Shown here: positions 21,801 through 54,653 of the stretch, in pieces
Layout of the letters: each line of letters begins with the position of its first letter
Position numbering within the stretch: position 1 is the first letter of the stretch
NCBI GenBank assembly: GCA_004022145.1
Contig: RCNU01000001.1
Reading direction: 5' to 3' (one strand)
DNA length: 64,000 bases
From: Paecilomyces variotii
Lineage: Eukaryota
The notes under the pieces: generated by a model
Told to the model about the DNA's origin: nothing
The model's input: the letters and a program-made list of their open reading frames with translations, nothing else
Database searches by the model: none
Program-made: the position numbers and the translations under genes

Positions 21801-22165
21801 TACCCCCTATATTTAGCTTTAATTTATTATAAAAAAGAATATTAAAACTTAATAGTAAGTCTTAGAGTATAAAGATATAAAAGAAGAGAAAAATAGCTTA
21901 GGTTTTTAAGCCCTAAAATAGAGCTAAAAGAGAAGCTTAAAAAATAAAGTAATATAATAAAGGAGAGGCTACTTTAATATTAAACTAATATTAAAATATA
22001 ATTAAAAGGAGATTGCTTATTCTATTTTATATTAACTAATTAATTAATGCGCTTTCTCCCCTTATATCTTATTAGAAGTATTTAAGCTACCTCTTCTAAT
22101 AATAGCATATAACTTACTGACCTAATTATATCCTTAAAATCTCTTTACTGTTTCCCCTTACTACA
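15832..22165 (-). mobile_element. Family A copy A3 (integrase to 5' LTR; host of A2)
   Basis: Starts abruptly at the A2 LTR end in sequence homologous to A1 ~6082; collinear INT-RH-RT-PR-gag relic; 5' LTR 21825-22165. Confidence 0.9.
21825..22165 (-). repeat. 5' LTR of A3
   Basis: 341-bp LTR with an un-RIPed terminus ...ctaca at 22161-22165. Confidence 0.92.
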
Positions 22166-25100: not shown

Positions 25101-25440
25101 AGAAGGCTTAGCTTTATATTTAATATATAAAAAAAGCTAGCAAGAAAGTCTTTAATAATAAAAAATAGCTTTATAAAGAATAACTAACTAAAGAATAACT
25201 AGTTTTACTTTATAATATAAAGCTTAAGATATCTTACTCTGCTAAACTAGCATATTACTAACTAGGGCTATACTAAATTAAAAAAGTTCTTTAGAAAGAT
25301 TTCTATAAGCTTAAGAAGTTAAATAATATAGCTTTTAGAGACCTAATTTATAAAAATTACTTAAAAGACTATTATTTATAAGATAATTAAAGAGATATAC
25401 TAGCAATAAATAATAATATAAAACCTAAGCAAGAGAATTA
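22166..25440 (+). pseudogene. pol relic of A4 (RT-RNase H-integrase)
   Basis: De-RIPed: RLPQGWTN (~23045-23070), FLDD (~23139-23150), RNase H DAS (~23635), HHCC zinc finger (~24345-24460), YNPQANG (~24790), WTGPY (~25258). Confidence 0.88.
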
Positions 25441-28400
25441 GCAAATAAGTAAAGACAAAAATAATATAAATTAAATATTATCTAGATTAATATATATAAT
25501 TATAGTCCTAGTACCCTCCTTTTAAAAATATTAGCTTAAAAGAAGGAGAAGTAAAAGGTTAATAATAAAGTAAGTTTAATATTAAATAAGGGTTTAGCTT
25601 AGGATAAAAGAGAGCAGATAAACTAAAGATAAGAATATTTAAATTTTTTAAAAGAAGGGAGGGACTTAAGAATAAATAAAATAGAAGAGCATATATATAT
25701 TATTAAAAAAATAAGGCTAGACTCTTCTAATTACTAAAAAAAGAAAATATTAAATAAAAAACATAAAATAACAATAAAAAAATCTTACTTTATATTAAGA
25801 ACCTTACTTTTTTACTTATAAATACTATTAGAAAACTTAAGTCTAATTATTTTATACCCCCTTTTTATACTAAATATTGCTAGACTAAAACTATTATATA
25901 ATCTTACTAAGCCAAAATAAAAAAAAATATATTTTAAATTTAAAATATTATTCTATAGAAATAGTTACTAAAGTTTAATATAAATACTTATATAACTATA
26001 AGAGAAATCTATAATTTTATAAAGAGAGCAATTATTATAATAAAAGATAAACTAAAAAAGATTAAATTTATAACTAGAGTAGCGGCTATTATTATAAAAT
26101 TTTAGATTAAATAAAATAAGGCCGCGGCAGATTATTATAAGTTTTTAAAATAATAAAAGCTTTTAGAAGAAGCTTAAGCTAAAGAGAAGAGAGCTATTAA
26201 GGAACTTAAAAAATTAATAAAAAGAGTAAGAAAAAATAAAAATTATATAAATAAGAGATATATAATAACAGTAGAGATATAGAGAAAATAAGTAGTTAAT
26301 TAGCTAATAATATAAGCTAAGAAAGCCTATTAAACCTTAATAGTATTAAAAAAAATTATAAAATAAATTAAGAAATAGAGAATAACAGCTATCTACTTAA
26401 TATAAGCTTAAATAAATAGATTATTAAATATTAAAAAGCCTAGTATATAGCTAAAAAGGAATTTACTATTAATAGATATTAAAAGAGTAAAAGACTTTTT
26501 AAAGAGGATAATTAATAGGAGCAGATAATTTCTATTTAAAGTAATAAAAGCAGAGCTTTAATTAATTAACATATAGATTAGAGAAGACTTTTTTTTAAAG
26601 GAGATTTTAGAGTATAAAGTAAAGAGGATAATTAAAGACTTAGGAGAGAGCTTATTAATTAACTTTATTATTAGTAATAAGGAAGATAATAAAATAGAAG
26701 AAGAGAAAAAGGGTAAAAAAAAAAAAATAAAGAGCTCTAAGAAACCTAAAAGCAAGAAAAAAGTTAAAATATAAGGAAAGAGAAAGTAGGCGGAGGAAGA
26801 ATATAATTATAAGATTAAAATATTAGAATTGCTTAAAAAAGTACTTCTTAGCTAAAAAAGTAAAAAAATATTAAAATTTTTAAGGAAAGAAAGAATTAAA
26901 ACTGCTGCTATATATTAAGTCTATATTAAAAAAGTATAAAATATAATAAGATTAAGGAGTGTAAAAAATAATATCTTTAGAGAAAGGTTAAAAATACTTA
27001 TAGATAATAATAATAACCTTAAATACTAGAATATTAATATAAACTACTAGAAATAGTTCTAAGGGGGATAAAGATTTAATACTAACTTTAAAAATTATTA
27101 CTGCCTAAATAAGGAAAAAACTAAAATATAATCTTAGCTAAATAGACTAAATATAAGCGCTAAAAAAGTTAGAGAAGTCTTGTAATAAGTTAATTCTAAG
27201 AAGATTAATTTAATTTATAAGCTATATATATAATTATTAGCTAATATAATTAATATAAAAGAGAATATATCTATAAAAGAAGCTAGAAGAATATTAAAAA
27301 TAGTTAAAAATATAAAGTTAGTAATAATAAAGCAGCAGAAGAAAGGACTATTTAAAATAATAACTTATTCTTATAGAAGTTTATTTAAAGAAATTAAATA
27401 ATTTATAAGCAAAATTTTTAAAAATAAATAAGTAATAGAACCTCCTAGCAGAGCCTTAAAAACTAATATAAAGCTCTTCTTTTCTACAGTAAACCTAGAA
27501 GACTTTTTTATTAAAAAAGAAACCAGGCACTTAAAAAATATATTAAGAATATTATTAGAAGAGTAGCCGCAGAACTTTTTAAATAATATTAAATTTAGAT
27601 AAGCGCCTCTAGTAATTTAGATTAATAAACTAAAAGGTAAAAGAAGTCTTAATAGCACTTTATCTAAACCTATAAAAACTAAAGAATCTATTAATAATAT
27701 AAAATTAATAAAGCCCTCCTTTTCTATAATAAACTTAGAAGACCCCTTTATTAAGAAAAAAATTAAGCACTTAAAAAATATGCAAAATACTAGAACTATA
27801 TAATTTAAAGATAATTTAGAGGCTAAGTAAATACTAAGCATACCTAGTAATAACTAAGTTAAAAAAAGAATAAAGAGTCTTATTTTAAAAAGTCCTAAAA
27901 ATATAGAAGATAAAAATAATATAAAAGTTAAAGAAACCTTATTTAAAGACTTTCTCCCTAAAAAATCCCTAGTATTAGAGATAATTTAACTATTTAGAGA
28001 TTTTAGATTAATTAATATAAATATTTTTAATAATATACCTAGCAGCTTATATTATAAAGCTTAAGATAACCTATATAAGGCTAAAGAGTATCCTGAATCT
28101 AAATATAGGGATAAAAAATAGTTTAATTTAAATAAAGAAGATTTTACTCTAAATAAAATATAAGACTAATATATTTAGTTAAGTATTATAATAAGGGAAG
28201 ACTTTAATTATTAAGAAGAGAATAAGGTTTTCTAAATTATACCCTTTAAAGGAAAACTAATAAAAGAAATATTATAATATACTACTATAGAAGTAAAAGC
28301 AGCCCTTTATTATAAAAAAAAAAATAAAGAATTAATAAAGCTTAAGAATTTATCTTAGAGTATTTTTTAAAAGATTATTATATAAGATATCTAAGTCTAT

Positions 28401-29045
28401 TTAATCTAGTTAGTATTATATAGTTATAGCAAATATAAGTTACAAATCTAATATTTTAGAAAATATAAGCTAAGAGTATTAAATATAGAGACTATAATCT
28501 TTAAGAGAGAAATAGGCTGGGGCTTTATAACCCTAAAGATTAGACTAATTACTAGAAATAAGTCTAAGAAAACTATAGGTTTAAGAGATATTATACTTAG
28601 ACAGGGAGAAATAATCTTTATTAGCAATTTATATTAGCTAGTATTAAAGAATTAGAGAATAAATCTTAATAATATTTACTATTTTAATTACAGGGAATAA
28701 GATAAGATAAAATCTAATTAAGGAGGATCTAGGCCTTTTAATATTTAGATAAATAAAATTATAGTTATAGGCAGAGCAATACTTAATTAATTAAATTAAA
28801 ATTACTTAAAAGTTAAAGCAGAGCTATATTTTATATTAAAATAAAATATATTATTAGTCTGAGATTATCTGCAAAAAAAAGGAACTTAGCTTTATAAGTT
28901 AAGGGTTTTAAGGTATATATAATACTAGAAACTAGAATATTCCTGCTTTAGAAATAATTTATAATATAAAAAAAAGAAGATAGTATAAATTGCAATAATT
29001 AAGAAAGACAGATAAGGGCATTTATATATAAAGGAAGAGAGGCTA

Positions 29046-29393
29046 TATAATAGGGGGAAATAATAGGGAGGTTTTAAAGATATAATTAGGTTAGCAAGTT
29101 ATATGCTATTATTAAAAGAGGTAGCTTAAATACTTCTAATAAGGTATAAGGGGAGAAAGGGTATTATTAATTAATTAGTTAGTTAATATAGAATAGAATA
29201 AACAATCCCCTCTTAGTTATATTTTAGTATTAATTTAATATTAAAGCAGCCTTTCCTTTATTATACTATCTTATTCTTTAAGCTTCTTTTCTAGCTCTAT
29301 TTTAGGGCCCGAAGACCTAAGCTATCCTTCTCTTCCTCTATATCCTTATGCTCTAAGACTTACTACTAAGTCTTAATACCCTTTCTTATAACA
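29046..29393 (+). repeat. 3' LTR of A4
   Basis: Reverse complement of the 341-bp LTR with a small insertion; follows the PPT. Confidence 0.92.
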
Positions 29394-31853
29394 CTACTAT
29401 TAATAGATATTAAAAAAATAAAAGACCTTTTAAAGAAGATAATTAATAAAAATAAATAGTTTTTATCTAAAGTAATAAAAGCAGAGCTTTAATTAATTAA
29501 TATATAAATTAGAGAGGACTTTTTTTTAAAAAAGATTTTAGAGTATAAAGTAAAGAGGATAATTAAAAATTTAGAAAAGAATTTATTAGTTAATCTTACT
29601 ATTAGCAATAAGGAAAATAGTAAAATAAAAAAAAAAGGGTAAAAAAAGAATAAAGAGCCCTAAAAAACTTAAAGACAAGAAAAAGATTAGAATATAAAAA
29701 AAAAAAAAGCAGGCAGAAAAAGGCTATAATTATAAGACTAAAATATTAAAATTACTTAAAAGGGCGCTTTTTAACTAGAAAGATAAAGAAGTTATAAATA
29801 GCCTTTAATAAGGGGGAACCGATATTAATAAACTCTGTTATAAGCATATTAATAAGATTTAAGTAATACTAAGCATATATATAATAAAAAAAAATTATTA
29901 AAAAAAAGACTAAAGGTGCTTACTAAAAGTAATAATAATTTCTATAATCTATTAATATATAATAAATATTAAAGGTAGTTTTAATATAGCTTTTATTTAA
30001 ATATATTTTTTAAGAATTATAATTATAATAATAAAAATAACTTACTATAATAAAGCTAGATTAGTAATAAATTAATAATAAAAAAGGATATTAAAGAAGT
30101 ATTATATTAGTTAATACTAAGGAAGCTTTAAAAGATTTATAAACCTTATATATGCCTTTTAGCGGGTATAATAGAGGTAAGAAAAGAAATATTAGCTAGA
30201 AATGCTAGAGAAGTTTTAAAAATAATAACTAAAATAATGCTAATAGTTATAAAGTAATAAATAAAGGCCTTCTTTAGAAATATATATTATTTATTAAGAA
30301 TATTATTAGAAGAGCGGCTATAAAACTCTTTAAATAATATTAAATCTAAATAAGCGCCTTTAGTAATTTAGATTAATAAACTAGAAGGTAAAAGAAGTTT
30401 TAATAATATTTTACCTAAATTTATAGAAACTAAAGAATCTGCTAATAATATAGAATTAGAAGAGCTCTTTATTAATATAAACCCTTAGAGTAATAATAAA
30501 TAAGCTAAAAAGCTTTTTAATAAGATAGATAGTAATATAATTAGGGAAGCTATAAAGTTTCTTATAGGTAAAAAAAAATATCTAACCTTTTATTTAAAGT
30601 TTGCTATAGACTTTTATCTAAAACCTAAATACTTTATTTAGTTATATTTATAAAAAAGATATATAGCCCTAAGATTAGCTTTAGAGAAAGATTTTATATA
30701 ATAGGAGCTTTTAAGATAATTTTATATTTTTATATTTTAAAGTAAGAAAGGACTTAATTTATAATACCCTATGCAAAAAACAGAAGTTATATTATATTAT
30801 AAAAAGGAAGTAAATAATAAAACTGCAGGGGTAAAGAATATATTTTAAAATATTTTATAAAAAATTATTAAATAAGATATAAGATATTACTTTATTTAGC
30901 TAGCTCTCTTTAGTAAGTAAAATTATTATTTATAAGTTTATTATAAATAAGAATATATAGAAGGAGATAAAGGAAAAAAGATTATAATCTTAAAAGGTAT
31001 ATAGAGATAGAGCTTAATACCTTTATATTATAAAGCTATTATAAGAGAGCCTTTTAAAAAGAATAATATTACTTTAGAGTAAGAGTAAATATTAATATTA
31101 GATAACTAGAAAATAGTAATATTTAGGGAAAGAAGCTTTAATATAATTAGAATTTATTTCTTTAACTTTAAAGAAGTTAATAAGATAAGAGAAGACTAAA
31201 GGAGAGAAAACCCCTTAAACTTTTTTATCTATAGGGTAACTGCAATTAAAAAGGCTTTTTTTAGGTAAGCTTTATAGGACTCCGCGGAAATATAGGCAGA
31301 GTTATATTTTATATTTATTTAAGATTTAGAAGCTATTAAGCTTTTTTTATAGGACTAATAATAATAGCTTATAAACCTAGCAGTTATTAAATATAAGGTA
31401 TATAAAATATTAGAGAAATCTTATTTTAGGAAGTATTTATAATATAAATAGAAAGAGATTAAGTAAATTAAAATATTAAGATAAAGCAGATAAGAGCATC
31501 TATATATAGAGAAGAGAAAGCTATATAGTAAGGGGAAATAATAGGAAGGTTTTAAAGGAGAGACTGCTTTAATATTAAACTAATATTAAAATATAACTAA
31601 GAGGAGATTATTTATTTTATTCTATATTAACTGACTAATTAATACTCTTTCTCCTTTTATACTTTATTAGAAGTATTTAAGCTATTTCTTTTAATAATAA
31701 TATATAACTTGCTGACTTAATTATATCCTTATATTTTTTAAGCTTCTCTTTTAGCTTTACTTTAGGGCCTAAAGACTTAAGCTACTCTTTTTTTCCTCTA
31801 TATCCTTATACTCTAAGACTTATTACTAAGTCTTAATACCCTTTCCTATAATA
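29394..31853 (+). mobile_element. Family A copy A5, 3' end (variant 3' region; host of A4)
   Basis: Begins in sequence homologous to A4 ~26464; unique block ~30475-31495; PPT gaagagaaagcta; 3' LTR 31524-31853. Confidence 0.87.
31524..31853 (+). repeat. 3' LTR of A5 with internal inversion
   Basis: Ends match 29046-29393 but ~31554-31731 reads in the opposite orientation. Confidence 0.85.
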
Positions 31854-34800
31854 ATAGGATAATATTTCTTTTACTTAAAGGTAATATTTTTATTTATTAT
31901 TAGAGTAAATTAAAATATTATTTAAATAAATACTTATATAGTTATTTAGCAGGTTAAAGAAGAGATTATTTATATATTATTAGAATATAGCCGGTCTATT
32001 AGTAAGCTTAAAAGGAAGTATATAATATTTATAAGTCCTATATCTTATATAGAAGGTTATTAGAGCTTCTAAACTAAGATTTATCTAGATCTTATAAAAT
32101 ACTTATTAAATATTTAACTTTATAAAGATCTTAGCTTAACTAACTCTAGCTAGGGTTTTATTAATTAATAGTAAGGGGTAATAATCTTTCTTTATAATTA
32201 TATTTAGGCGGTAATAATTAATATAGAATTATAGTTCTTTATCTGCTTTCTTTATAAAAAAAATTAATAAAGCAAAGAACTTCTAGCTAGGCGAGATAAA
32301 ATCCTTCTTTAAGTTATTAATTAAATATACTTTAAGTATTTATAGCTTCTCCAGCAATTATTTATAAAGGGGTTAATATTTTAAGGGAATTTCTCCTTTA
32401 AGGTCTATCTTATAGTTATAGGGCCAGTAAAGAGGCAGTTTGTTAAATGCTTATTTAAAAAAGATATTAGAAAAGTTTTTATAGACTATAAAAAGATACT
32501 TATAAATTAGCTTTAAAAGTTCTTATTTTTTTAGCACAGTTAGAGACTTCTATTTAATAATCTTATTAATCTTATATAGGCTAATAGTAAAGACCTTTAT
32601 ATTTTTCTTATATAATACTTATTAAAATCTCTTAGCTCTAATATATATAATATTTAATATTGCCTTAATATTTATCCCTAGGAGATATAGTTTTATAATT
32701 ATTAAAGGCGGAGAATTAAATTAGTCTTTTAATTTATATTATATTTTTATTAGAGCTAATTAGGTATTAACTTATTTAATTTATAGAGGTTAATAATAGA
32801 GAGAATTTTCTTATTTTAAGATTTAAATCTATTTCTCTATCTATAGGTCTCTTCTATTAGCATCTTATTAATATTTAAGATTAATAAGTAGCCTTATTAG
32901 ATTCTCCTTTATAGTAACTAGCTCCTATTAAAATTAATAAGTTTATAGATTATTATATAGCTAAATTAATTATTAGTTTTAAATATTTAAAAGAATAGAT
33001 TTCTCGGCTATTTATTTTTATTTAAAGATTAAGTTATAATAATCTAGGTTAATAATTAATATAAGTAAGTTTAGACAGATTCTCCTATTAATCTTTAAAT
33101 TAATAATAAGAATATAGTTTATCTATTCTCTAATTTGGTTGTTATAGCTGTTAATAAATATAGGTTAATATAGAGGTTCTAGGGAGGCGTTTAAGAACTA
33201 GGTAATTAATAGGACTAATAAGTAATTAAGAAAATAAAGCCTATTTACTTTAAAATTTAGCAGGGTAGAGAGCTTAATACTATATCTATTTTTATAAATT
33301 ATACTAGACTTAATAAAGTAGTTATCCCTTAAAAAGCGACTAAGATTAATCTCTACTAGGTCTTTATTAACCCTTAGGTTAAAGTCTTAATCTAGGGGTT
33401 AGCTTTTTCTAAGTCTTATTTATCTTCCTTTTTTTTAATCTCTAAGTTTTTAATATCTACTATTACTTTCTTTAATAGGCAGTTAATAGCTAGATATCTC
33501 TTTGCCTTATAAAAGAAATACTTCCCTTCTTTTATAAATATCTTACAGTTAGTAGTAAATAACTTAATATTAATTTTAAAAATAAATAAACTACCGCTAG
33601 ATTAGTTAGAAAAAATTTAAAAAAAAGTTTTAATATTTAAGTTCTTATTTTAGCCGGCCTTATAGTTATTTTTATTATTTTTTTAAAGGGTATAAGTAGC
33701 TTAGTAATAAATATCTTTAAAATTATTAAAATCTTTAAATTAGTAATATTAGCTAATAATAAGGCTTTTAAAAAAGGGAGTAATCTTATTATATATCTTA
33801 GTTTAGTAATTATTAGGGTATATACTTACCTTACCTGCTAGTCTTATAAACTCTATATAAAGAGCTAGGGTAAAGAAGCTCTTTAATCGGGGGTAACTAG
33901 CGGACTAGTTAAACAGAATATAAGATAAGAGGTTAAGATATAGGCAAGTAGTAATTTACGCGTAGTAGAGTTAAAGGTCTAGTTTAGGGGTAATTAAAAC
34001 AAATTACTAATCTGTCTAACTTTTATTTCTTTAGGAGGTTTTTATCTATCTATCTAGTCTACTAAATTATTTAAATAACCTAGTCTTAATAGCTCTATCT
34101 ATAACTTAGCTAATCTAACTATTATATATAGATCTAGTTATCTTATTATCTTGCGTTCTTTATCTTAAGTCTTAGCAGGTCTATAATATTAAGTATAGTA
34201 GCCCTTATTTATAATAATATTCTCCTCCTTTAAAAGGCTTATTTTAAGCTGTATAAAGTTTATTATATAGATCTAGATATTTAGCGTAGCTGTAGTAATA
34301 ATAGTAAGTTATTATTAAAGTATGCTTATTATATAAATTTATCTAATATTAGCTTTATTTTAATATTTTTATCTGGGAGATTAGGAGTATTTCTCTTCTT
34401 TGCTAACTAATTCTTATCCTTTTACTTATATATTAAGCTATCTTTTTCCTATTTCTGTAGCTTGTTTAGTGCTGTTTTTAATAATCTAAATATAAAAAGT
34501 GCTAATAATTATATAAGTATATTAAAAATAAGATTTTTAAGTTATTTTCTTCGCAGGTCCTATATATGCGCTTAATATAAGTTATAATCCTTTAAGTTTA
34601 TATAATAGTATTAATTAGTCTAGTAATACCTTCTAAGTGCTTTAAGTGCGTTTTATTTTTTCTAGGCTCTTTTAATAAGACTCTTATACCTGCCTTTATA
34701 ATAGCTAAAGCCTAGCTCTTCTATAGCTAGTTTAATAAGAATAAGAAGTAGCTTAATTTAATTTTTTTTTTATATCTTTAACTGCCGCTGTAATATCAGA

Positions 34801-42000: not shown

Positions 42001-42440
42001 ACTTAACAGCCTTATAATTTATAAAAAAATTAAGCTCCTATACTATTATATTAAACACTGCCTATAATATATTATTAATAGAACTAGGAGATATAGACTA
42101 TATAGCTCTATATAGCTAATCCTTATGCCTTTAATTCTATTTTATACTATTATAATTAATTTTATACTTAGACTATTAATTATAAAAGAATAATAGAAAG
42201 ATTATAACTACTATATATCTATTACATATAAATTTACTAAGCATATTATATTTATCTAAGATATTACAATATAGACAGTATAATAATAAGATATTATACT
42301 TTTAAATAAACTGCGTCTCGCAGATTAGGGACTGCTATATTAGATAATATCTAATAAAGATTAAAAGTTCCTTTTAAAGCTTTAAAGAGTATTATTTATA
42401 AAACTAGGTATTAATTTATTCTATTTAACTGCCTACTACC
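36100..42440 (+). pseudogene. gag-pol relic of C, part 1
   Basis: De-RIPed: C2H2 finger (~38369-38422), protease LDSGCS (~39017), RT IYIDD (~40385-40400), RNase H (~40870-41330), integrase to STAY at 42440; start approximate. Confidence 0.85.
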
Positions 42441-42566
42441 TGATAGGGTTAGGGGATAAAGAAGTTGTCTTCTATTAGCTACGTAAGGAAGTAACTATAT
42501 AGCTAAGTCGTTGGCCTGAGGCTCCCATACCTCGCACCTTCGTGCCCCACTAACGTGGCAGGCAGG
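42441..42566 (-). repeat. Truncated 3' LTR of D1
   Basis: Matches 54654-54779 then stops; intact TG terminus. Confidence 0.88.
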
Positions 42567-42705
42567 GCTGCCAGCGATATATGCTTTCGCCATAGCGTAA
42601 TGCCATCCGCGAAAGGCGTGGCCAGGAGGTGCTTACTCGACTAGGGACTCAGCAACAACAAGTTATAGCATTATATGCTGCGGTGCTGCTATAGTTGCGC
42701 CTGTA

Positions 42706-42768
42706 GCAACGGGTAACATAATATTGGCAACGGGTAACGCGATGTTGGCAATAGGTAACGCGATATTA
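42706..42768. repeat. 21-bp tandem repeat x3 (gcaacgggtaacgcgatgttg-like) in D1 coding relic
   Basis: Direct reading. Confidence 0.8.
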
Positions 42769-43544
42769 AATATCGCGGCCTTAAAGAGTTTAATGTTAAG
42801 GAAACGCAGGGTTAATTTTTGATAGTAATCTGCATTGCGCAGATAATTATAGAGCTTATTATTTAATTAGAAGATTGTCTAGTACAGCTAATATTTAAAT
42901 ATAGGAGCAATCTGTGTAGTATAGTTAGCATAGGTGTTATAGTTGTTATCGCCGTATTCTATATACTAAGGGTCGTTATATCCAGCTTAATAGCTGTCTT
43001 AGTAGTAACTCTTATATTCCTCAGAAAAATTAATTAGATTAGGGGTCTGATCTAGGGCTGCTGTATTATATATTTCTAACTTATAAGTATTATAATTGCC
43101 TTACTGCCTATAGTTCCCTTCTGCAATATCTATAGATTGCCCTATTTTAGCACTTGTATAGGCCGCAGCTTAAGGCTATACTAGAAAAGGAGGGCCTTAA
43201 TTGCTAGTATTATTTATATATTATTATAAGTAGGTCCTGTTTAAAGCTTATTAGTTCTAATTATTATATTAGTTCTAGCTATTATATTATAGGAACTAGC
43301 GTAATTATACTAGGGGTTAGCCTAGATTTTAAGTCTAGCGCTATAGCGTCTAATACTGCTGTACCTAAGCCGGTTAATATAATATTAAATAATTAGGATA
43401 GTTATAGCCTTAATAGTTCCTATTCTGTATAAACTATTATAAGGCTTTATCTCTAGTCTGGTTAGTATTATTAGTACTATCTTAGTTCTGCCTTAAGGAA
43501 TTTAAGAAGGGAGAATAATAGGAAAAGGTAGACTAGTTATATAG

Positions 43545-43750
43545 GTAGTTCGGTTCGGTTTGGGGGAGGGTTGGACCGCCTATAGCGGGTTTTAGTTTAG
43601 GGCAGAAAAACCATACCTAAACTGAACTGTATTCTGGCGGTTTAGTTTAAAACTAAAAAAACCAAAATATTCGCCAAGACCGGGCGCTAAACTAACTTAA
43701 GTTAGATTTTTCTTAAACGGTTTAATTTAAATGGTTTATACGGTTTACAG
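43545..43750. repeat. Left subterminal repeat array of E (cggtt/aaccg/aacta units)
   Basis: ttcggttcggtttg, gcggtttag, acggttta etc.; typical hAT transposase-binding repeats. Confidence 0.75.
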
Positions 43751-45799
43751 TGTTAAAGGTATTAATATTCTATATTATTTTATATTATTATTAAATTTAT
43801 ATCCTTTTAAATCTATAGCTAAAAAATAGTTTAGATATAATATTATTATATTAAATCTAAAAGTATAAAGATAGTCTTTTAAGATATTATTAAATATTAA
43901 TATAGACTTTAAAATAATTGTTATAGAAATATATATATATATTTATAAACTATAGTGCTAATAGAGTATTATTAAACAATATATATAATTTATTATAAAA
44001 GCTAAAGTTATTAAACTAAAGAATAGATTTTATTTACTATTATTATTCTTAATAGAAAGTAATTTCTAGATTATTCTTTTAATAAATTAACAATAAAATC
44101 TATATATAATTAGTAAGTTATAACTTCTACAGAAAATATATAAATTCTATATATTTATAAAGCTTACTAAAATTCTAACTTAAGTTTAAACTATTAAAAT
44201 TATATTATTCTTATAGCTATTTTTTTTTTATCTGGATATAGTTTTTAAGTCGAATATTATTTTTTTGTAATAGATAATCCCCCAATTAAACTATTTAATA
44301 TAGCCATTCTATTGTAAATTACAGATACTTATTTTACCTTAATTTGGCTCTATTAATATAATACTATAATAATAAAACTAAGGTCTTTTTTTTTACTAAT
44401 TTTAAGAAATAATTCTATGCTAGAAGAAGAAATTAATATAGTTATTTTTAGCCAAGATCTTGTAGATTATAATCCTAAATTATAAGATACTTTCCCTTAC
44501 TATTTAAGGAAGCAATTAAAGTAATCCCCTAAATATGCTAGAATTATTTATCTTAAATTAGATTAGCTACCTATATTTTTATTAGCATACTAAATATAAT
44601 AAGCTAGGTTGCTTAGTGTTTTTTTACGGTAAACTATAAGTAGAAATATATATCTTACATATTAATATTGGGCAATAAAATTTACTAATTTACCTTTTAA
44701 ATAGTATTAGGAAAAGAAAGAAAGCAAGGATAAATATAAGGGTATCCCTTAATCTTATTAAGCTAAATAAGAAATATAGCAATTTTAGATAAAGTAGCTT
44801 TAAGATTAGTAAAGATATCCTTAGGAATAATTAGATTAATCTTAACAGTAACTATTATAACCTAGGGCTAATATCTTTCTTTTCTAAAGGCGAATTAAAT
44901 AAGATAGTTTTAAAAGAGAAATATTAAGATTTTATAAAGTAATAATTAAAAGAAATTATAAGTTATTTATTATTATAATAGCTCTAGGTGCAGAGGGCAG
45001 TTTAAATAAATAATCTAAGCTAGAAAAGAGCATTTTAACTTAAGTTAGAATATACTAGAAGGTTATATTTAAAGTATTTAGTATTACTTTAGCTATATTA
45101 CCAAATAAACTAACTGTCGCCTATATATAATTTGGCCTATAGAGGAATAAGATAAATAATAAATATTATATGCTAATCTTTTAATTAAATATATCTAACT
45201 AAAACCTAAGAATCTAAAGCGCCTTTAAGATACTACTATAAACTATTAAGAAAGAAATATAAGCAGTAAGTTATTATAAGATATTACCGATAGTAAAGAT
45301 AATAACAAATTAAATATATAATAGACCTACTTATAATTTAACTTAAGTTAGAATTTATAAGTTTAGTCTCTAAAAAATAGGTAAGGCTTACTTATTTAAT
45401 TAGCAATAATCTTACTAGTAATAGTTAATTAGAGCAGTAATAGAATAATTAATAAGGGAGCCTAGGGAGTCTCTAATATTATATACCTATATATATGCGA
45501 TTTCTTAATTAGGTATAGTCTATATTAGGAGTATATATATTATATTATTTTTTCTTTTACTATATTTATTTTTTTCACTAAATATACTCTTTAATAAAAA
45601 GAGTGGATTTTAATCTAGTTAGAATTCAATTAAAGAATTCTAGGTAAGGAATAACGCATAGACTAGATAACAATTTAACTTAAGTTAGATTATTTTTAAG
45701 GATATAAGGGAAGATTATTATATATTATTATAAGTCACTAACCCTACTATAATTAAAATTCTAACTTAAGTTAAAGGCTTTATAACTTTACTTATTAGA

Positions 45800-48700
45800 G
45801 AGATAGCACAAATAATAAAAGCATCTATTAGATAATAAGGCAAACTCTCTAAGATTTTAGTGTAAAAAACCCAGCTAAAAGTATTAATAAAAGAGACCCA
45901 AGACTTATAATTATAGCAATTCTATAGAACCCTATTTAGATTTTAAGCCTATTTAGATTAATATATTATATAGGCTAAAGGCCTGCATAGCTAAGGCTAA
46001 AGTCTTTTTAATAATAAGAGATAATATAATCCGCGCAGAGCTCAAGAATAAATATCTAGAAATATTATATATAGATATAAAGAAGCTTAAAATATCTTAG
46101 AAAGATATAGAATACAATTAAGATATTAATACCAATTATATTAAGAATTTAAAGAATAAGTTCCGCATTAATATGCGGAGATTCGATGTTAATATATAAA
46201 TAAAAGCGACCCTAAGCATTAAAGACTTTAACCTAGCATTACAGGCATATATAGCAGAATTATTAAAATTAATAGATATTAGCAATATCTACAATCTCTT
46301 AAGGCAGCGGCAGGATAAAAATAGCAATTTTTTTATCTACCTAGAGAAATAACTAAAAGGGCTCGCGTTACTAATATTATAAGCCGGGCAATATTATTAT
46401 ACAGCTCTTTTAAAGCTGCTAACTAAGCAGAAAGAAATAGCTGCTGCTAAAGCTATTAATTATAAAGGAAAGATAATTAAAAGACTATAGGCTAATATAT
46501 ATTCTTATTTTAATTTAAATTAGAATTTAGCTAATTAATCTATAGGCATATCTCTGGGTTATTAATCTCTATAATAAGGCAATATTATTAGAAGTTCTTA
46601 CAGCATTATAATCTAATTATAAAGATATTACTCGCATTAATACTAATAAAAAATATATGCTTTTACTTATTAAGGAGTAAGAAAAGAAACCTATAGATTA
46701 ATACAAGGAACTGCTAAAGAACTATAAAGAGTTTAAAAATTAAGCATATCTTATTATTAATATATTATTTAATTATACAGCTTATACTATAGCCCCTTTA
46801 TATAATAATATTTAGTTATAATATTTATAGGAGTATTTATAGACAGCTTATAATTACTCTTATTAGAACTATATATTAGGAGAGATAATTATAAACATAA
46901 AGCTAGATCAAGTATATTTAAGGATCTAATTTTAATTTTAATTTTCTAACTTAAGTTAGATCTAGATTATAAAGTTTAAGAAATTTTTTAGCTTTGCTAA
47001 GATAATCTTTATAGATAAGTAAAGCGGAATAATATTAGCAAAAAATTAAAAACTAATTACTAAATATTACTACAGCGCGAGCAACTATACCTTATATATA
47101 TTATTTTTTCCTTTGTAGGCAGATTATAAAAATAATAGACTTAAGCTATCTTTAAATCATAGGTAGTTTAATAAATAATTATTGCCTTACTTAAAGATTC
47201 TTATACTATCTCTTAAAAACTCTATTTAATAACTATCTTTCCTTATAACCCTGCTAGATAAAGTATATATATAAATATAGAAGAATATTTCAGAAAATAG
47301 AGAACTTAAGTTCCCCTTATAATAAGTTCTAACTTAAGTTAGATATAAAAATTAATTATAAACTAATTATTATAAGAGCTTATAAATTAATCTTAATAAT
47401 AAAATTAGTCTCTTATTAAAATCTATGCTAAAATATATTATATTTTAATATAATTTAAAATAACAGTATCCTGCTACAGCCTCTAAATATCTCTAAGAAT
47501 TTTAATAGATAAATAAACTTTAATATTTCCTCTTTTATAAATCTAATAATATATATATTGTTAAGGGCTTTATAGAAAAACTTATTAATAAGCTTTATAA
47601 AGACTCCCTATAAACCTAGGCAGATCTAAAGCATTATATAATAACCTTATTTAACTATAATTAGAATTAATACTAATATCTTTTAGCTGCTAAAACTATA
47701 TAGCAACCTCTGCTTCTAAAATATTAAAGAATAAAATAGTTATAACTAATAATATATATATCTTTCTTATTTTAAGCGGCATTATTAGGCCTATATCCTT
47801 TATATAACTTCTGAAGTAGTCCTACTTAACTTTAAGAGCATTATAAATTAATTTAATAATAAGAGCGAGATTATAAATCTAGACTATTCTAACTTAAGTT
47901 AAAACTAATATAATATAGGGTAAATAACTTTCTACCTTTACTATCTTTAGTAGTATTATATAATAAGCCCAATTCTAATATAATAATATAGTAAAGAACC
48001 TGAGAATCCTAAAAATTAACTAATATAAAGATAACTTAAAGATTTAATCTAATATTGCCAGGGCTCTATAAATATATTAATCTATTAAGAGAAACATAAT
48101 TTATATTATAAAGCTTAGCTTTTCTAAGACTAATAATTATAAAAAGGATTCTAAGGATCTTATTAAGACTAAGGTATATATACCACTAATTTAACTTAAG
48201 TTAGAAATTAACCTAATTTAAGAAAAATAATATTAGTGCTTACAGGCACTAAGAGAGGTTACCAATCTTTTAATTAAGTAGGACTAGGCTTTAAATATAA
48301 ATAATATAAATAAATATCTATAGCGCTTTACACTAGACTATAATCTTAAAATTAAGAATAAATATACTATTTAGAAAAAGTTATATACGCCTTTTTTAAC
48401 CTTATTAAACTAACTACTAATAAATAAATGCCCTTATAATAATAATAAAAAATAATATAAGCTAGAGAATTAGAAACAGCTCTAAGCCATTACTTTTAAT
48501 ACCCTAAAAAAGAAATAGAAAGTATTAAAGGATTCTATAGATAAATAAATTAATATATCTATTCTAACTAAAGTTAGAATAAGATTTAATTAAAATTCTA
48601 GATTAAGATGTAGAGACTAATAGGGCGAATAATATGCCTTAAAAGAATAATATAGATAATAATAATAAAGGTAAGTTATTTTTCTTACTAATTATATTAT
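45800..48700 (+). pseudogene. Multi-exon cargo gene relic, DUF3723-like / ParB-DGQHR-like protein
   Basis: De-RIPed reading ~46027-46420: IRAELKNKYLG...YNRDIDTNHVKNLKNKFR..MRRFDV...LVLQAGQHRxAALLEL; next exon ~46547 AYLWVIDLYD; family call by motif recall only; boundaries approximate. Confidence 0.55.
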
Positions 48701-49229
48701 TAAATAGTTATAATAATATTATTATTATAAGTATAAAAGCGGGGCTAAGTTTTTAATTTAAATTTAAGTTTTTTAGTTTAGCTCTAGGTAAGCTATCTTA
48801 ATAATATTTACTTAATATATAAGAAACTAATTTAAGTTAAAAGTAAAATAATTAGGTTTTTTTTAGACTAATAATATAATCTCTACTTTTAAGTTAAATT
48901 ACTTAAGAATAGTTTTCCTCTAGTAATAAGAACTTATATTATTTAAAAGCTTTATCTCTAACTTAAGTTAGAGTAGATTTTATTAATAAAACAGAAATTA
49001 GTTTTTAAAGATTTAATTTAAGTTAATATAGCTATTGCTTTTTATTTCTATTTTAAGATAATAATTAGAGATAAAAAAGTAAGACTGTAAAGATAGGGAC
49101 TATAGAATAGAAGAAAAAAACAATATATCTTAATAATTTAGGCTGGCTCTATAGTAACTTAAGATATAAATATATCTAAGCAAGAATCTAACTTAAGTTA
49201 AAATATTATAGATATTATACTGCCGCCAA

Positions 49230-52060
49230 TATTATTATCTTTAAATTTCTTTTTCTCCTTGCTTTATTTTAATAGAGATATATTAAGATTATCGGGTCCT
49301 TTATTATAGTTTTAGAATTATATTATTTATACTCTTACAGAGACCTATAAGACTTCTTTATTTTTAGATATTAATATTTAAGATATAAATTTTAATTATA
49401 ATCCTATTAAATAATATAAGCCCTAATCTAAAGCTAATACTCCTAACTTAACCGAACTTAAGATAATAAGATATAATTAAGGAAAGGCTATTATCTATCT
49501 AGCTCTTCTAGAACAGGTTTAGATTTTTAAATCTTAATAAAGTAAAATAGAGTTTATAAAATAGCAGTCTAAGTTTTAATAAATAAAAATAAAGACTTAA
49601 TTATATATATAGCAATATTATTAAGAAGTTACAAATAATATTTCTAGCGTCCCTTATATATAATATTTATATTGCTCTATATTTTTTTAATATCCTTATA
49701 AAAGAGGAAATAGCACTAGCTTAATAGCCGCCTATATAAAAAGAGCTATATACTAATCTAGAGATAAGACTCAGAAAAATAGCAATATTTAAAATATATT
49801 AATTATAAAGGTAAGAACTAGATAATTAATATAAACTTTATTACTGATATTTTCTTTAGAAAACTTTTAATCTAATATATATACCAGATATATTATATAA
49901 TTAGATTCTGTATTTTATTATAGGATATTGCCAATTGTTTTAAATAGTTAAATATATTTAGTTCTGCTATATATTATATATAGCTGCTGGTAATTTATAT
50001 CTAGAGTTACTTAACCAATATTAGATTTAAACACGCCTTTTTAAACTTAAGGAGATCAATTATATTAAAATACTGTTATATTTATTAGAATAAGGAAAGA
50101 TTTCTCTAGTATTAAATTATTAGACTAATTAAAATTAATATTCTTTTCTTATTATAACTAGGTATTTTATTAATATAAAATAAGTATATAGAGAAATATT
50201 TTTAACCTTTAATTCTGTTTATAGATTATATATTAGGAAAAACTTAGCTAAAATACTACTAAAGAATCTTTATTAATATAATCTATAATATTAGATCCTT
50301 ACTATTATTATAGATAATATAAGTAATAATACTACCCTAATAGCGAAGCTAGATAAAAGCCTAAGAGATAAGCTTAAAACAGATTTATTATTAGAAGATT
50401 TCTAAGATATAATATTAAGTTAACTTATTTTAAATCGCTATTATATTCTATATTTAGCATATATTTTATAACTTACAGTTAATACTTTGCTAAGCAAACT
50501 TTATATTAATACTTTTATTAATAATAGTATTAATTAAGATATAAAAAAGGATAGAGGCTTATTATATCTTTAGGGTATCCTAATATTATTAAAAAAAGTA
50601 TTCTCTATCTAACTTAAGTTAGATTAATACTAACAGATTTCTGTATAGGTTTATAAGATTACTAGATTTATTAATGTAAGCCCTTAGCATTGGGAATATT
50701 TCCTAATACTATAATAATCAAATACTAGTTAGCTAAAATTATTACTTCTTAATTGCCGGACATAATAGAATTTAATATATCTTATACTTATATATGCCCT
50801 TAAACTGCGTGCAGTAATTGGACGATTTATTATATTATAAGCTAATAAAGATATTTGTTTTCTAATATTATCCCCTACTAAATGGCGTCAGGTTAAATAT
50901 CTTATTAAGTTAACCTAGCTATTTTATAATCTTATTCTCGCTGTATTAAAGATAAACAGTCTATTAATTTATAGGGTTTTTAAAATCTATAATACTATCT
51001 TTAATTATCTTAATAATTATATAAAACATTTAAAATTAAAAAGAGCTATATAGAAGATCTAACTCCGAGATGCTTTATCTAAAGCTTATAATAAGTTACG
51101 AACTTATTATGCCAAAATATATGAATCTTAAGGATTTATATATACAATTATAACAATTTTTTACCCCAGCGCAAAACTTAAATATTTTAAAACTTAGGTC
51201 TAGTAAGATATAATAAAAAACTGGTATAATACTTATAAAAAGATTTTTTATAAGGTATTTTAATACTACAGTAATTAAAATCTAAATATTAAGATATAAT
51301 TAAGAACCTATTTATTAGTCTTAACCTTAGATTATATGCTTACACGATCTAAATATTATTATTTCTCTTTAAGTACTACTAGTACTTATTAAGAAATTTA
51401 GACTTATCTTACTAAAAGTAATGTTCTATCTAATATTATATCTAAATCACATAATATTATTCTAACTTAAATTGGATTAGGTTTATCAGAATTAGATAAT
51501 ATCCTTAACTATTAGAGAATTAATAAACACTAATTCCTAATTCTTATAATAATAGCCTGAGATTTTCTTATAATCCCATTAAATAGTATTAGTATAGAAC
51601 AATTATTTAATAATACTTAAGATATCTGCTATTATTAATATAGCTAATTACTTCTTAATATAATCTATACTTTAATACTTCTTATATATACTAAAAATTT
51701 CACTATTTAGCAGGAGTTTAAGGCAATAACTAATAATATAGATATAACACCTGATAATCAATAATTTAAAAGGGAGAAGATTAAATCGCCAAATCTAATT
51801 AGTAATAATAAAGATATAGATAATATATTAGAAGGAAAGATAAATATAGATAATAAAGATTATTAAATAGAGCAGTTTAGGGGTTAAGGTCTTTTAAATA
51901 TTTAAATAGATTAACCTATTATTAAGTCTACTTATAATAAAGGAGAATAATTAGATAAATTGCCTATACCTAGAGTTTCTATGTATCCTTGGAGAAACAC
52001 AGTAACTATAGATAAACCTAAGTCTTCTAGTTATTGCTTATACCAGATTAACTATATTAA
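49230..52060 (+). pseudogene. hAT transposase relic with introns
   Basis: De-RIPed: ILTITxDNASNN (~50295-50330), PCLAHILQL (~50447-50475), DCRTRWNSTYLML (~50750-50790), RDFLxIPxSGVGVERLFNSARDIC dimerisation domain (~51558-51630); introns ~50575-50648 and ~51418-51480. Confidence 0.88.
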
Positions 52061-52229
52061 AGGCTAATATAAATATTAAGAATCTAACTTAAGTTAGACT
52101 CTAATATTATATTCTAATATTATTCTACTAATTTTTAGTTAATATTTAGTAATAGATATTATAAAGAAATAAAAATCTAAATAGTTCTTAAAGATTAATA
52201 AGATTTATATAAAAATTCAGATTAATCTA

Positions 52230-52420
52230 AAGTAACTAAAAAAAACTAAAAAAACTAAATTAAACCAAAAAACCCAAAAAAACTAAACCTAAAAAAACTA
52301 TATAATGCACTATAAACTATCAGTTCGGTTTATAAAGTCTATAAACCGTTCCGGTTTATAAAATTATAAACCGAACTAAATTATAGGCAGTTCAGTTCGG
52401 TTTAGTTCGGTTTTTTTAGT
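52230..52420. repeat. Right subterminal repeat array of E
   Basis: aaaacta/aaacc/aaccg/ttcggtt units. Confidence 0.75.
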
Positions 52421-54653
52421 TTTCTATAACTACTCTAGGAAAAGGTTCTAATATTATTATAGTTATATTGTTAATAATAGTATTAATTCTCTTTTACCTA
52501 TTTTTGCTATACTATATAAGCTTTTTTAACTATTTAGATAAAGTCTAACACTGTAATATTTTCTTATAGCGCTTATATATCGCGCTTAAATAATAGGGAA
52601 AACCTGTTTTATACAGCTAAGAGTTAACTATATATTTCTTTTATTCCTATAGCGTTTAATAAATATAATACTTATTAAATAAACTCTTAAGGAATTTAGC
52701 CCGCTATAATGTCCTATATAATATAATATAAAGACTTAAGCTATTTTATAATAGCTACAGCATTAATCTTAAAATATTTTATAAGCTATAAAATCTAACC
52801 TTCTTTAATAAGACGCATATATAAAACTTTATAATTATAGTTAGATAGCTTAGCTATATATTATTATAGGGCTAAGCTATATAATAATACTTAAATATAG
52901 CTTTATATAATAGGTTCCTCTTTTATCGCAGCTAAATTACAGATCTAATTAATAAAAATATAGATATCCTTATAATAAGTATAACTTCCTATTATTATAA
53001 TAGGACCTATTCTAATATAGTCTTTATTACTTAAATTAAGGTAAAAATATTCTAGCTTTATTTGCTTCTATAGCATATTATTAACTATAGTACTTATTAG
53101 TATTCCTGAGGCAAATCTAGCATTTAAGTTTACTAAGAGATTATAGCTAAGAGTTTAGTTTTAAACTAATTACTGCTATTAGTCTTGCTATTATTAATAT
53201 TGCTATTATTAATGCTAGTATTAACTGTTATTTTAATCTATATCATTTTAAGCTATATTATTTTAAGCTATATTATTCCGATTTATAAGGTATTTTATTA
53301 TTTAGCGATTTTAGTCTAATATAGCCTTTATATTTTCTACTATTTACCAATTAGATTCTATTATTTATTAAAACATCTCTATTAATATAGTATTAGAGTC
53401 TATAGCCGGCAGTACCGGGGGTATAGCTGGGTTAATAATATTTACTATACTATTAATGTTTGCTGCTAGCTATATTAAGGTTTTATCTAAATAATATATT
53501 AGTAAATCTAGGAAGGAACGCGGTAGATTAAATAATAAAACCCTCTAATATTTAGCGCTCTAGCTCTAGAAAATAGAATTCTGAAGTCTAAGAACCAGAT
53601 TAAATAAAGCTAGGCAAGGAAGTATAGCAACTAGGATTTATAATCTAGGTTACTTCTGCTAGTATTTATCTTATAATAAAACTATAGAGGTACTATAAAA
53701 ATATATAAAATATAGTTTACTTAGCGGCTATATAGGTTCTATTATAAAATTAGCTAAGTCTGCTATATTAATCTGTTACTTCTAGAAGGCAGGGTGCTTT
53801 ATTAATATTAAGGTAAACTTAAGAAAGTCTTTAACAGTACTATAGAGTATAGATTAATTTATTACCTATAACACAAGAAATATAAATTATTTTATTTAAG
53901 GAGGAGATACCTATAGCTTAATCTAAAACACTTTAATATAGGCTAATAAGGTATACTTTAAGGAGTTATATTCTAGGTAATAGGATAAGATAAAATTAAT
54001 AAGATTAATAGTTTTATAGTTAAACTAATCCCTAAACTAAGAAGTTACTGTTTAAAACGCTGCTAAACTATATATAAGCTCTAATATTTTTTTAAATAGT
54101 GCAGGGAGATATTAGCTTTAATCTAAATATTAGCTCTAATCTATCTCCTCTAAAAGTTAGCTTATTATAGAGGCTTAACCTTAGCTTCTCTAGGCGAGAT
54201 GCCTAGTAGGGGAGACTAAAGCTAAATTATAATAATACTAGAGATAAAAATAATAAAACTAATAATAAAATACAGAATTCTAATAAAAAAAGTAGGGCTT
54301 TAAATATAAGTATTCTTAGCTAATCTATAATATCTCTAGGCGTAAGATATATAATAAAGTGGCTTAATATAAATAATTTCAATAATAGACATTAAATTAG
54401 GAGTAATAGAGGCAGAACTTAATAATATTAAGATAAATCTTAATAAAAAATAATATAAAGAATAGATAATATGAAGACTCTGCTAATAATAAATAACTTT
54501 ATATATAATAGAGAAGAGACTGCGGATAACCCGCTAGCGTTAAGAGCTAGCTTAAAATAATAATAATTAAATAATACAGCAGATTATTATAATAGTTTTT
54601 AGGATACTTCTAATAATAATTAAGCCCTAGATAACCTTAATATACTACTAAAT

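Follow-up and report, generated by a model that had tools for sequence, protein, structure and literature searches.

The DNA analysed here, called the window, is a stretch of 64,000 nucleotides (64 kb) from Paecilomyces variotii contig RCNU01000001.1. It contains element E, an 8,909-bp hAT DNA transposon on the plus strand (43529..52437) that has been mutated by repeat-induced point mutation (RIP). Element E carries a transposase gene, an accessory gene upstream of it (gene 1) and 21 sites of a 16-bp palindrome, TCTAACTTAAGTTAGA, several of which lie in introns. We tentatively read this palindrome as a site at which a protein recognised double-stranded DNA, and we weigh this reading against four others as the evidence is presented.

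The hAT transposon and its two genes

The ends of element E can be read from the sequence, and in four public runs reads and contigs leave the element at precisely 43529 and 52437, where many different flanks follow. An 8-bp target-site duplication, GGAAAAGG, stands at 43521..43528 and 52438..52445, in agreement with an empty-site joint in raw reads of a second strain (43518->52436, with 11 letters fitting both sides). The flank match itself is 11 letters long (TAGGAAAAGGT; 43521-43531 and 52436-52446) and so exceeds the 8-bp duplication, the extra letters overlapping the first and last bases of the element. The terminal inverted repeats start with TAGA and are imperfect: the left one, TAGACTAGTTATATAG (43529..43544, plus strand), agrees at about 13 of 16 positions with the reverse complement of the right end, TAGAGTAGTTATAGAA (52422..52437, minus strand). 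Subterminal CGGTT/AACCG repeats, five copies on the left (43551..43745) and six on the right (52326..52412), are confined to about 220 bp of each end. The 8-bp duplication, the short terminal inverted repeats and the hAT domains of the transposase are the traits of the hAT superfamily.

RIP has marked the whole window. The observed/expected ratios of CpA and TpG are 0.24 and 0.23, TpA/ApT is 1.40, (CpA+TpG)/(ApC+GpT) is 0.35, and GC content lies at 17-33% throughout. Along with this depletion of CpA and TpG and excess of TpA, the differences between copies of the element are mostly transitions (2105 of 2249 variable places in run X21, 1748 of 1812 in run X19). Just left of the element, at 42480-42830, lies an island of higher G+C (0.33 over 42001-43000) that has seemingly escaped RIP and that holds three imperfect copies of a 21-nt unit resembling GGCAACGGGTAACGCGATGTT. 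Elsewhere in the window, GC and AT skew are both negative before about 22 kb and both positive after it (1-22000 versus 22000-32000), which suggests long RIPed repeats in opposite orientation around 22 kb.

The transposase gene, inactivated by RIP, occupies 49637..52079. Like gene 1, it lies on the plus strand. It was delimited by HMMER, tblastn, a protein alignment (A2) and a RIP-aware alignment of the N-terminus, and comprises a candidate zinc-finger exon (about 49637-49810) followed by exons at 49860-50597, 50649-51417 and 51481-52079, the last ending in a stop codon at 52077-52079. A read-through translation of 48903-51899 yielded 554 HMMER matches at E<=0.001, some of them to full-length hAT transposases of fungi, P0003 of Penicillium taxi for example. 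A word-based protein search with the RIPed transposase, whose length filter excluded short ORF fragments, found no match. Logan contigs, up to 8,358 bp long, contain three short open reading frame (ORF) fragments, P0001, P0002 and P0006, whose identity to the window translation is 55-64% by tblastn. Where RIP has removed W, H, D, E and G residues from the window translation, these fragments still have them, and they therefore stem from a copy that is all but untouched by RIP; strains of Paecilomyces variotii appear to harbour such un-RIPed copies. P0006 matches PF05699 (hAT dimerisation; E=3.3e-6) and P0001 matches PF14372 (hAT RNase-H-like; E=1.5e-4), and both map to the window at 56-64% identity. 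In a six-frame Pfam scan of the element itself, with stops read through, PF05699 was weak (E=0.08) and nothing was found for gene 1. At the N-terminus, the RIP-aware alignment exceeds all 60 shuffles for both P0008 (44 versus a maximum of 37) and P0007 (47 versus 39). The zinc finger is a candidate of the BED type; some of its metal ligands have been mutated, and it matched no domain model.

Three introns were mapped in this gene. The first, which we number 1, is 49 nt long (49811..49859, GTAAGA...TAG) and is placed by a change of frame (pos%3=2 to pos%3=0) between 49792 and 49860. Intron C (50598..50648, 51 nt, GT...AG) appears as a 17-residue insertion of the window relative to P0003, P0008 and P0009, and intron D (51418..51480, 63 nt, GT...AG) falls at columns 701-723 of alignment A2.

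Gene 1, likewise inactivated by RIP, lies at 45963..47166, with exons at 45963-46496, 46546-46911 and 46966-47166 as annotated in its relative P0151. P0151 is a Paecilomyces variotii hypothetical protein of 368 aa, for which a shorter model, P0152, also exists. It is 65% identical to a read-through translation of 45600-46499 over 59% of that query. By tblastn it matches 45969-46502 and 46546-47163 at 58-63% identity, with a change of frame and a 16-residue gap. The frame change (P0151 residues 180 and 179 at 46502 and 46546) locates intron A (46497..46545, 49 nt), and the gap locates intron B (46912..46965, 48-54 nt). Further downstream, 47383..47508 is a probable additional exon of gene 1. 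In RIP-aware alignment this segment matches residues 361-401 of P0153, an Aspergillus relative, with a score of 54 against 34.6 +/- 3.7 (maximum 44) in 60 shuffles; on the known exons of gene 1 the same method scored 66 against 32.4 +/- 3.0. Residues 1-70, 286-350 and 401-471 of P0153, aligned to the window in this way, did not rise above shuffles. The downstream match indicates that coding probably continues past the annotated stop.

Element E is multi-copy, as 30,616 of 32,549 reads of run X21 are less than 95% alike to it. In reads and contigs of all four runs, depth is about 1.5-2 times higher over 49233-52302 than over 43400-49232, and shorter relatives or deletion derivatives without gene 1 probably exist. 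Run X21 also contains 162 and 124 reads that exit the element at 51173 and 51948 into single consistent flanks (agreement about 0.9). The strain of that run seems to carry an isolated 776-bp fragment of the transposase at one other locus.

A 16-bp palindrome repeated along the element

The exact sequence TCTAACTTAAGTTAGA occurs five times in the window, at 46945, 47328, 48957, 50608 and 52083, and in none of 100 shuffles that preserve dinucleotide composition. Allowing up to three mismatches raises the count to 21 (4.85 expected). Of these, 19 lie within 43691-52098, and the two outside it, at 791 and 38660, are both of the three-mismatch class. A RIP-aware pattern, TYTAAYTTAARTTARA, in which C->T and G->A changes of the consensus are tolerated, separates the element from its surroundings completely: all 21 matches with at most one mismatch fall inside element E, against 2.28 expected, and the remaining 55 kb has none. 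The two-mismatch class of this pattern (2 inside, 13 outside) is background, and the number of sites is therefore taken as 21. Similarly, every one of the 15 matches to the 10-mer core AACTTAAGTT falls within 43694-52095, against 0.54 expected. RIP-type changes alone separate 13 of the 21 sites from the consensus, and one other change is present in eight.

The initial annotation had proposed a maintained site at 16 positions, and all 16 are there: five without a mismatch, nine with one and two (44174 and 51461) with two. Its description of a discrete 16-bp unit in unrelated flanks, rather than a segmental duplication, also holds. Beyond the 16-mer we find a weak A at -2 and a weak T at +2, and repeat families that extend past the sites do so at about 70% identity, the chance level for 80% A+T DNA. 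In all 16 strong sites likeness ends sharply at the edges of the motif. Flanks that cannot be aligned right up to these edges argue for constraint on exactly these 16 bp, the central TTAA included. As the annotation also had it, the palindrome is distinct from the AACCG/CGGTT subterminal repeats and spans both genes. We considered a kinship of the motif with the terminal repeats of the element and dropped it, as AGTTA is all that the two have in common.

Could RIP, acting on A+T-rich DNA, have produced the palindrome as a by-product? RIP in the window is extreme, and the initial annotation itself had raised the concern that the motif might be just as frequent in other DNA of this kind. The window is equally RIPed outside the element, so a compositional artefact would have shown there, and it did not: the other 55 kb holds no site, and the five exact copies stand against none in the dinucleotide-matched shuffles. 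Stop codons within the motif were, moreover, already present in an un-RIPed copy of the element (see below). Within the window this explanation is refuted. The C and G of the motif that survive stand in CpT and ApG contexts, which are not depleted in the window, so their survival after RIP needs no selection.

The sites are spaced 55-1400 bp apart along the element. Site 1 (ACTAACTTAAGTTAGA; 43691..43706) lies in the left subterminal region. Between it and gene 1 come site 2 (44174..44189), the degenerate site 3 (TTTATCTTAAATTAGA; 44547..44562), sites 4 (45034..45049), 5 (45337..45352) and 6 (45674..45689), and site 7 (45760..45775), about 190 nt upstream of the gene 1 start. Site 8 (46509..46524), in the RIP-degenerate form TTTAATTTAAATTAGA, and the exact site 9 (46945..46960) lie in introns A and B. 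The exact site 10 (47328..47343) lies between the annotated end of gene 1 and the further stretch of homologous coding sequence. If coding does continue past the annotated stop, this site is inside gene 1 and hence would be intronic. Upstream of the transposase are sites 11 (47888..47903), 12 (48190..48205) and 13 (TCTAACTAAAGTTAGA; 48563..48578), the degenerate sites 14 (48752..48767) and 15 (48826..48841), the exact site 16 (48957..48972), the degenerate site 17 (49012..49027), and site 18 (49187..49202), about 450 nt from the zinc-finger exon. Within the transposase gene, the exact site 19 (50608..50623) lies in intron C and site 20 (TCTAACTTAAATTGGA; 51461..51476) in intron D. Site 21 (52083..52098), again exact, starts 4 nt after the transposase stop codon. 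A different small palindrome, GAACTTAAGTTC (47301-47314), lies 25 nt upstream of site 10; it contains, at 47303-47312, the sole AACTTAAGTT core that is not part of a full 16-mer.

The motif does not behave as coding sequence. Its sites occupy all three phases and therefore encode no repeated peptide. It carries stop codons in all six frames and is thereby confined to non-coding DNA, namely introns, the region past the transposase stop codon, spacers and the subterminal region.

Comparisons among copies touch the sites at a few points. In one X20 contig and 31 raw X21 reads, 44138-45751 (1,614 bp) is swapped for 20 other letters, so five of the palindromes are missing from some copies; on the right, the lost segment ends 8 nt before site 7. 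A hand count on selected rows placed about 4 of 32 joint ends between copies within 8 nt of a palindrome, which is near chance and gives no evidence that the sites act as breakpoints. From about 2,600 variable places in the read comparison, 40 were listed, and none of these falls inside a palindrome, a number that is uninformative on conservation of the sites among copies.

Introns, splicing and the age of the sites

Four of the five mapped introns, two in the transposase gene and two in gene 1, contain a palindrome; intron 1 of the transposase is the sole exception. The five introns total 266 nt. Four sites in this length compare with 0.63 expected over the whole element (p=0.004) and with 1.02 expected over its non-exon DNA (Poisson p=0.02). 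Another 13 sites lie in 43.7-45.9 and 47.5-49.6 kb, and some of them have an intact GTAAGT or GTAAGG upstream and YAG downstream. At site 2, GTAAGT lies 61 nt upstream and TAG 24 nt downstream, and site 6 has GTAAGG 30 nt upstream. Either could mark an intron, in the latter case upstream of gene 1. Stop density per frame and purine/pyrimidine periodicity pointed in the right direction on the known exons and were too weak to classify these two regions.

Such a distribution suggests that the motif might act in RNA. The pre-mRNA would form a hairpin that includes the branch point (UCUAAC-UUAA-GUUAGA), or would offer a site to an RNA-binding protein, and splicing or intron retention would be tuned in either case. 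CTAAC is the fungal branch-point consensus. When we looked for CTRAC about 10-40 nt before the 3' splice site, introns B and D had the CTAAC of the motif 16 and 15 nt from it, with site 9 at the 3' end of intron B. The enrichment of introns over other non-exon DNA, the likely intronic position of site 10 and the splice-like signals around several unmapped sites are all in keeping with such a role. Introns A and C are not: there the motif lies 4-6 nt past the 5' splice hexamer (4 nt for site 19), and near the 3' end intron C has another ACTAAC and intron A a CTAAT. Nor are site 1, among the subterminal repeats, and site 21, past the stop codon, in any known intron. Folded as RNA, the motif gives a weak hairpin of -3.8 kcal/mol. 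Neither a perfect 16-nt palindrome nor a loop of fixed size is required of a branch point, and intron 1, a normal intron, manages without the motif. We regard an intronic RNA element, the chief rival of the reading that we favour, as rather unlikely on balance. A more specific version, in which the motif combines the branch point with the 3' splice site, was rejected, as the introns at sites 8 and 19 would then be 25-27 nt long.

Two lines of evidence bear on the age of the sites. First, the ORFs from the un-RIPed copy end within the motif. P0002 ends in ...S-I, which corresponds to TCT ATC TAA in the window, and its closing TAA is positions 3-5 of the motif at site 50608 (site 19). P0001 ends in ...I-L-T, corresponding to ATT CTA ACT TAA, and its closing TAA is positions 8-10 at site 51461 (site 20). 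Since these ORFs are closed by stops inside the motif, the motif predates RIP. The initial annotation had taken the TTGGA at the end of site 51461 as a hint that the original form was TCCAACTYRAGTTGGA, and this part of its proposal finds no support. That form would have CAA at positions 3-5 and, given C at position 8 or G at position 9, also CAA or CGA, both sense codons, at positions 8-10, so un-RIPed ORFs would not end there; P0002 and P0001 would run on past sites 50608 and 51461. Judged by these ORF ends, the T at position 3 and the stop at positions 8-10 (TAA or TGA) predate RIP at sites 50608 and 51461, respectively. The TTGGA is best read as a variant of a single site.

Second, intron D is older than the palindrome it contains. 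Alignment A2 has an insertion of about 21 residues at this point that is common to the window, P0001 and a distant relative, P0004 (28.5% identical to the window translation by tblastn). In P0004 it represents a retained intron at the same place and of nearly the same length as intron D. It is read through without a stop and therefore cannot hold the palindrome, yet it has an L-T pair aligned with the L-T of the window (CTA ACT), which holds the CTAAC of the palindrome. The intron thus existed before the motif did, and site 20 arose by substitution around an old branch point, not by insertion.

This bears directly on whether a tiny foreign mobile element that struck here repeatedly left the palindromes behind as footprints or minimal remnants, be it one like a miniature inverted-repeat transposable element or two joined 8-bp ends. 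The motif does have the form of two inverted 8-mers, and this is the one positive point. Intron D, however, is as long as its palindrome-free counterpart in P0004, and in three of the four cases removal of 16 nt would shrink the intron to 33-38 nt. There is no direct repeat or target-site duplication beside the 16-mer at any of the 16 strong sites, and no copy in the other 55 kb. This origin is effectively excluded.

A neutral origin by copying within the element is harder to dismiss. With the CTAAC present in every intron as an anchor, template switching or gene conversion could have spread a short palindrome, which then stayed in place without a function until RIP struck. Such an anchor would explain the bias towards introns, and the palindrome of intron D was indeed built around an older branch point with no change in length. 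Against this, conversion tracts vary in length, and the strong sites have uniformly sharp edges. Thirteen of the 21 sites are perfect apart from RIP-type changes while the intron sequence around them is unrelated, and there are sites where no intron is known. We consider such a relic improbable.

A candidate recognition site and its possible binder

The reading we favour, and hold tentatively, is that the 16-bp palindrome was kept as a site at which a sequence-specific protein, probably a dimer, recognised double-stranded DNA. An exact unit with sharp edges, present in some 21 copies in one family of elements, in place before RIP and, at site 20, formed by substitution, points to constraint on these 16 bp. 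Dimeric DNA-binding proteins classically recognise palindromes of about this length. While still active, the ancestor of this transposon would have kept about 21 palindromes over its full length, and the protein bound to them could coat, bridge or tether the 8.9-kb element, or the sites could titrate a regulator as copy number rises.

The likeliest binder would be encoded by the element itself. The product of gene 1 is the best candidate, with the transposase or a host factor as alternatives. An element-encoded binder is attractive because element E carries a lineage-restricted gene with signals of the ParB/DndB kind. TIGR03187 (DGQHR, NCBIfam) matches P0151, and the match begins at a conserved AGQHR that P0151 and P0153 have in common. 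In a protein-language-model atlas, the clusters nearest to gene 1 are those of DUF3723 (score 0.94). With DUF3723 left out, the neighbours listed include clusters with ParB_N (18% of members), GmrSD_N (51%) and DndB (92%), at scores of 0.86-0.88. The TIGR03187 match and the atlas neighbours are two weak, independent leads that agree, and we call the gene 1 product ParB/DndB-like as a lead in this sense. The 16-bp palindromic parS sites to which ParB proteins bind occur in several copies, and DndB has been reported to bind palindromic operator motifs.

Other searches with gene 1 returned little. A homologue search with P0151 gave three proteins only, the PDB sequence search gave nothing meaningful, and PADLOC gave a weak match to UzuA. 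A metagenome scan with P0151 gave one locus (L001), at 25% identity, which lacks the motif and was treated as unrelated. In the searchable literature we found nothing on point about a hAT of Paecilomyces or about fungal transposons with ParB-like proteins.

Several observations count against a DNA recognition site read by this protein. The TIGR03187 match (E=1.1e-4) reaches 22 bits, with a curated cut-off of 58.85; atlas scores below 0.9 are rated as leads only; and Pfam found nothing on P0151 or P0153, with no DUF3723 match at E<=10. An AlphaFold2 model of the gene 1 protein from a three-sequence alignment was unusable (mean predicted local distance difference test score, pLDDT, 38.6). The left half of the motif, TCTAAC, agrees perfectly with the branch-point consensus of fungi and in two of the four introns lies at the distance expected of a branch point, and the excess of sites in introns over other non-exon DNA fits a role in RNA or splicing at least equally well. 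Finally, the transposase-binding repeats known from hAT elements are subterminal, not element-wide. We think it unlikely that the binder was the gene 1 product specifically. An equally unlikely proposal is a ParB/parS-like module of a eukaryotic cut-and-paste transposon, in which a protein of the DGQHR/ParB clan would read the palindromes and thereby coat, bridge, tether or count copies of the element.

DNA transposons are known to carry repeated motifs for protein binding at their ends. In hAT elements they are subterminal transposase-binding repeats, such as the AAACGG of maize Ac, which are 5-6 nt long, non-palindromic and located within about 200 bp of each end. Element E has its own AACCG/CGGTT repeats of this sort, and its palindrome resembles them as a short motif that occurs many times in one hAT and is presumably read by a protein. 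The palindrome, by contrast, is 16 bp long and recurs along 8.4 kb, in introns of both genes among other places. An exact 16-bp palindrome that is kept about 21 times along the whole body of a hAT, in nearly every intron, is undescribed in the searchable literature, where the 16-bp motif itself was not found either; subscription journals and supplements were outside that search.

Accessory DNA-binding proteins are also known from other superfamilies than hAT. En/Spm has TNPA with its 12-bp motif and PIF/Harbinger has a Myb-like protein, both acting on subterminal motifs. Element E resembles them in having a second gene beside the transposase and a repeated motif that an accessory protein could bind; we know of no ParB/DndB-like accessory protein in either group. 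Introners, in fungi and algae, are another case of sequence shared among many introns. There, whole introns in many unrelated genes are alike along their full length, whereas here 16 nt alone are shared, the palindrome is younger than at least one of the intron positions, and outside the element the window has no copy of it. Should the palindrome have acted in RNA, element E would be a transposon that gives its introns a common control element.

Two comparisons concern fungal mobile elements that carry cargo. According to its abstract, PMC12506042 presents ToxhAT as a large, cargo-carrying fungal hAT, and element E is likewise an unusually long hAT with more than a transposase. A repeated internal palindrome is absent from that abstract. 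DUF3723 is described, in portions of PMC9156397 and of a 2025 preprint, as a conserved passenger of Starship elements whose function is called unknown. The nearness of gene 1 to DUF3723 clusters in the atlas recalls these passengers, but Pfam gives no DUF3723 match and element E belongs to the hATs rather than to the Starships. Should the gene 1 product be the binder, the palindromes would be a first functional handle on an orphan fungal family that resembles the DUF3723 of Starships.

The closest parallel in form is bacterial. Like the ParB-parS and DndB systems, element E combines a perfect 16-bp palindrome in many near-identical copies, 21 in this case, with a neighbouring gene that shows weak signals of the ParB clan and DGQHR family. 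It differs in being a nuclear transposon of a eukaryote in which no helix-turn-helix, CTP-binding motif or ParA partner was seen, and the membership of gene 1, as judged from its sequence, is a lead. If its own ParB/DndB-like protein did read the palindromes, element E would be a eukaryotic transposon that uses the site-plus-clamp logic of bacteria.

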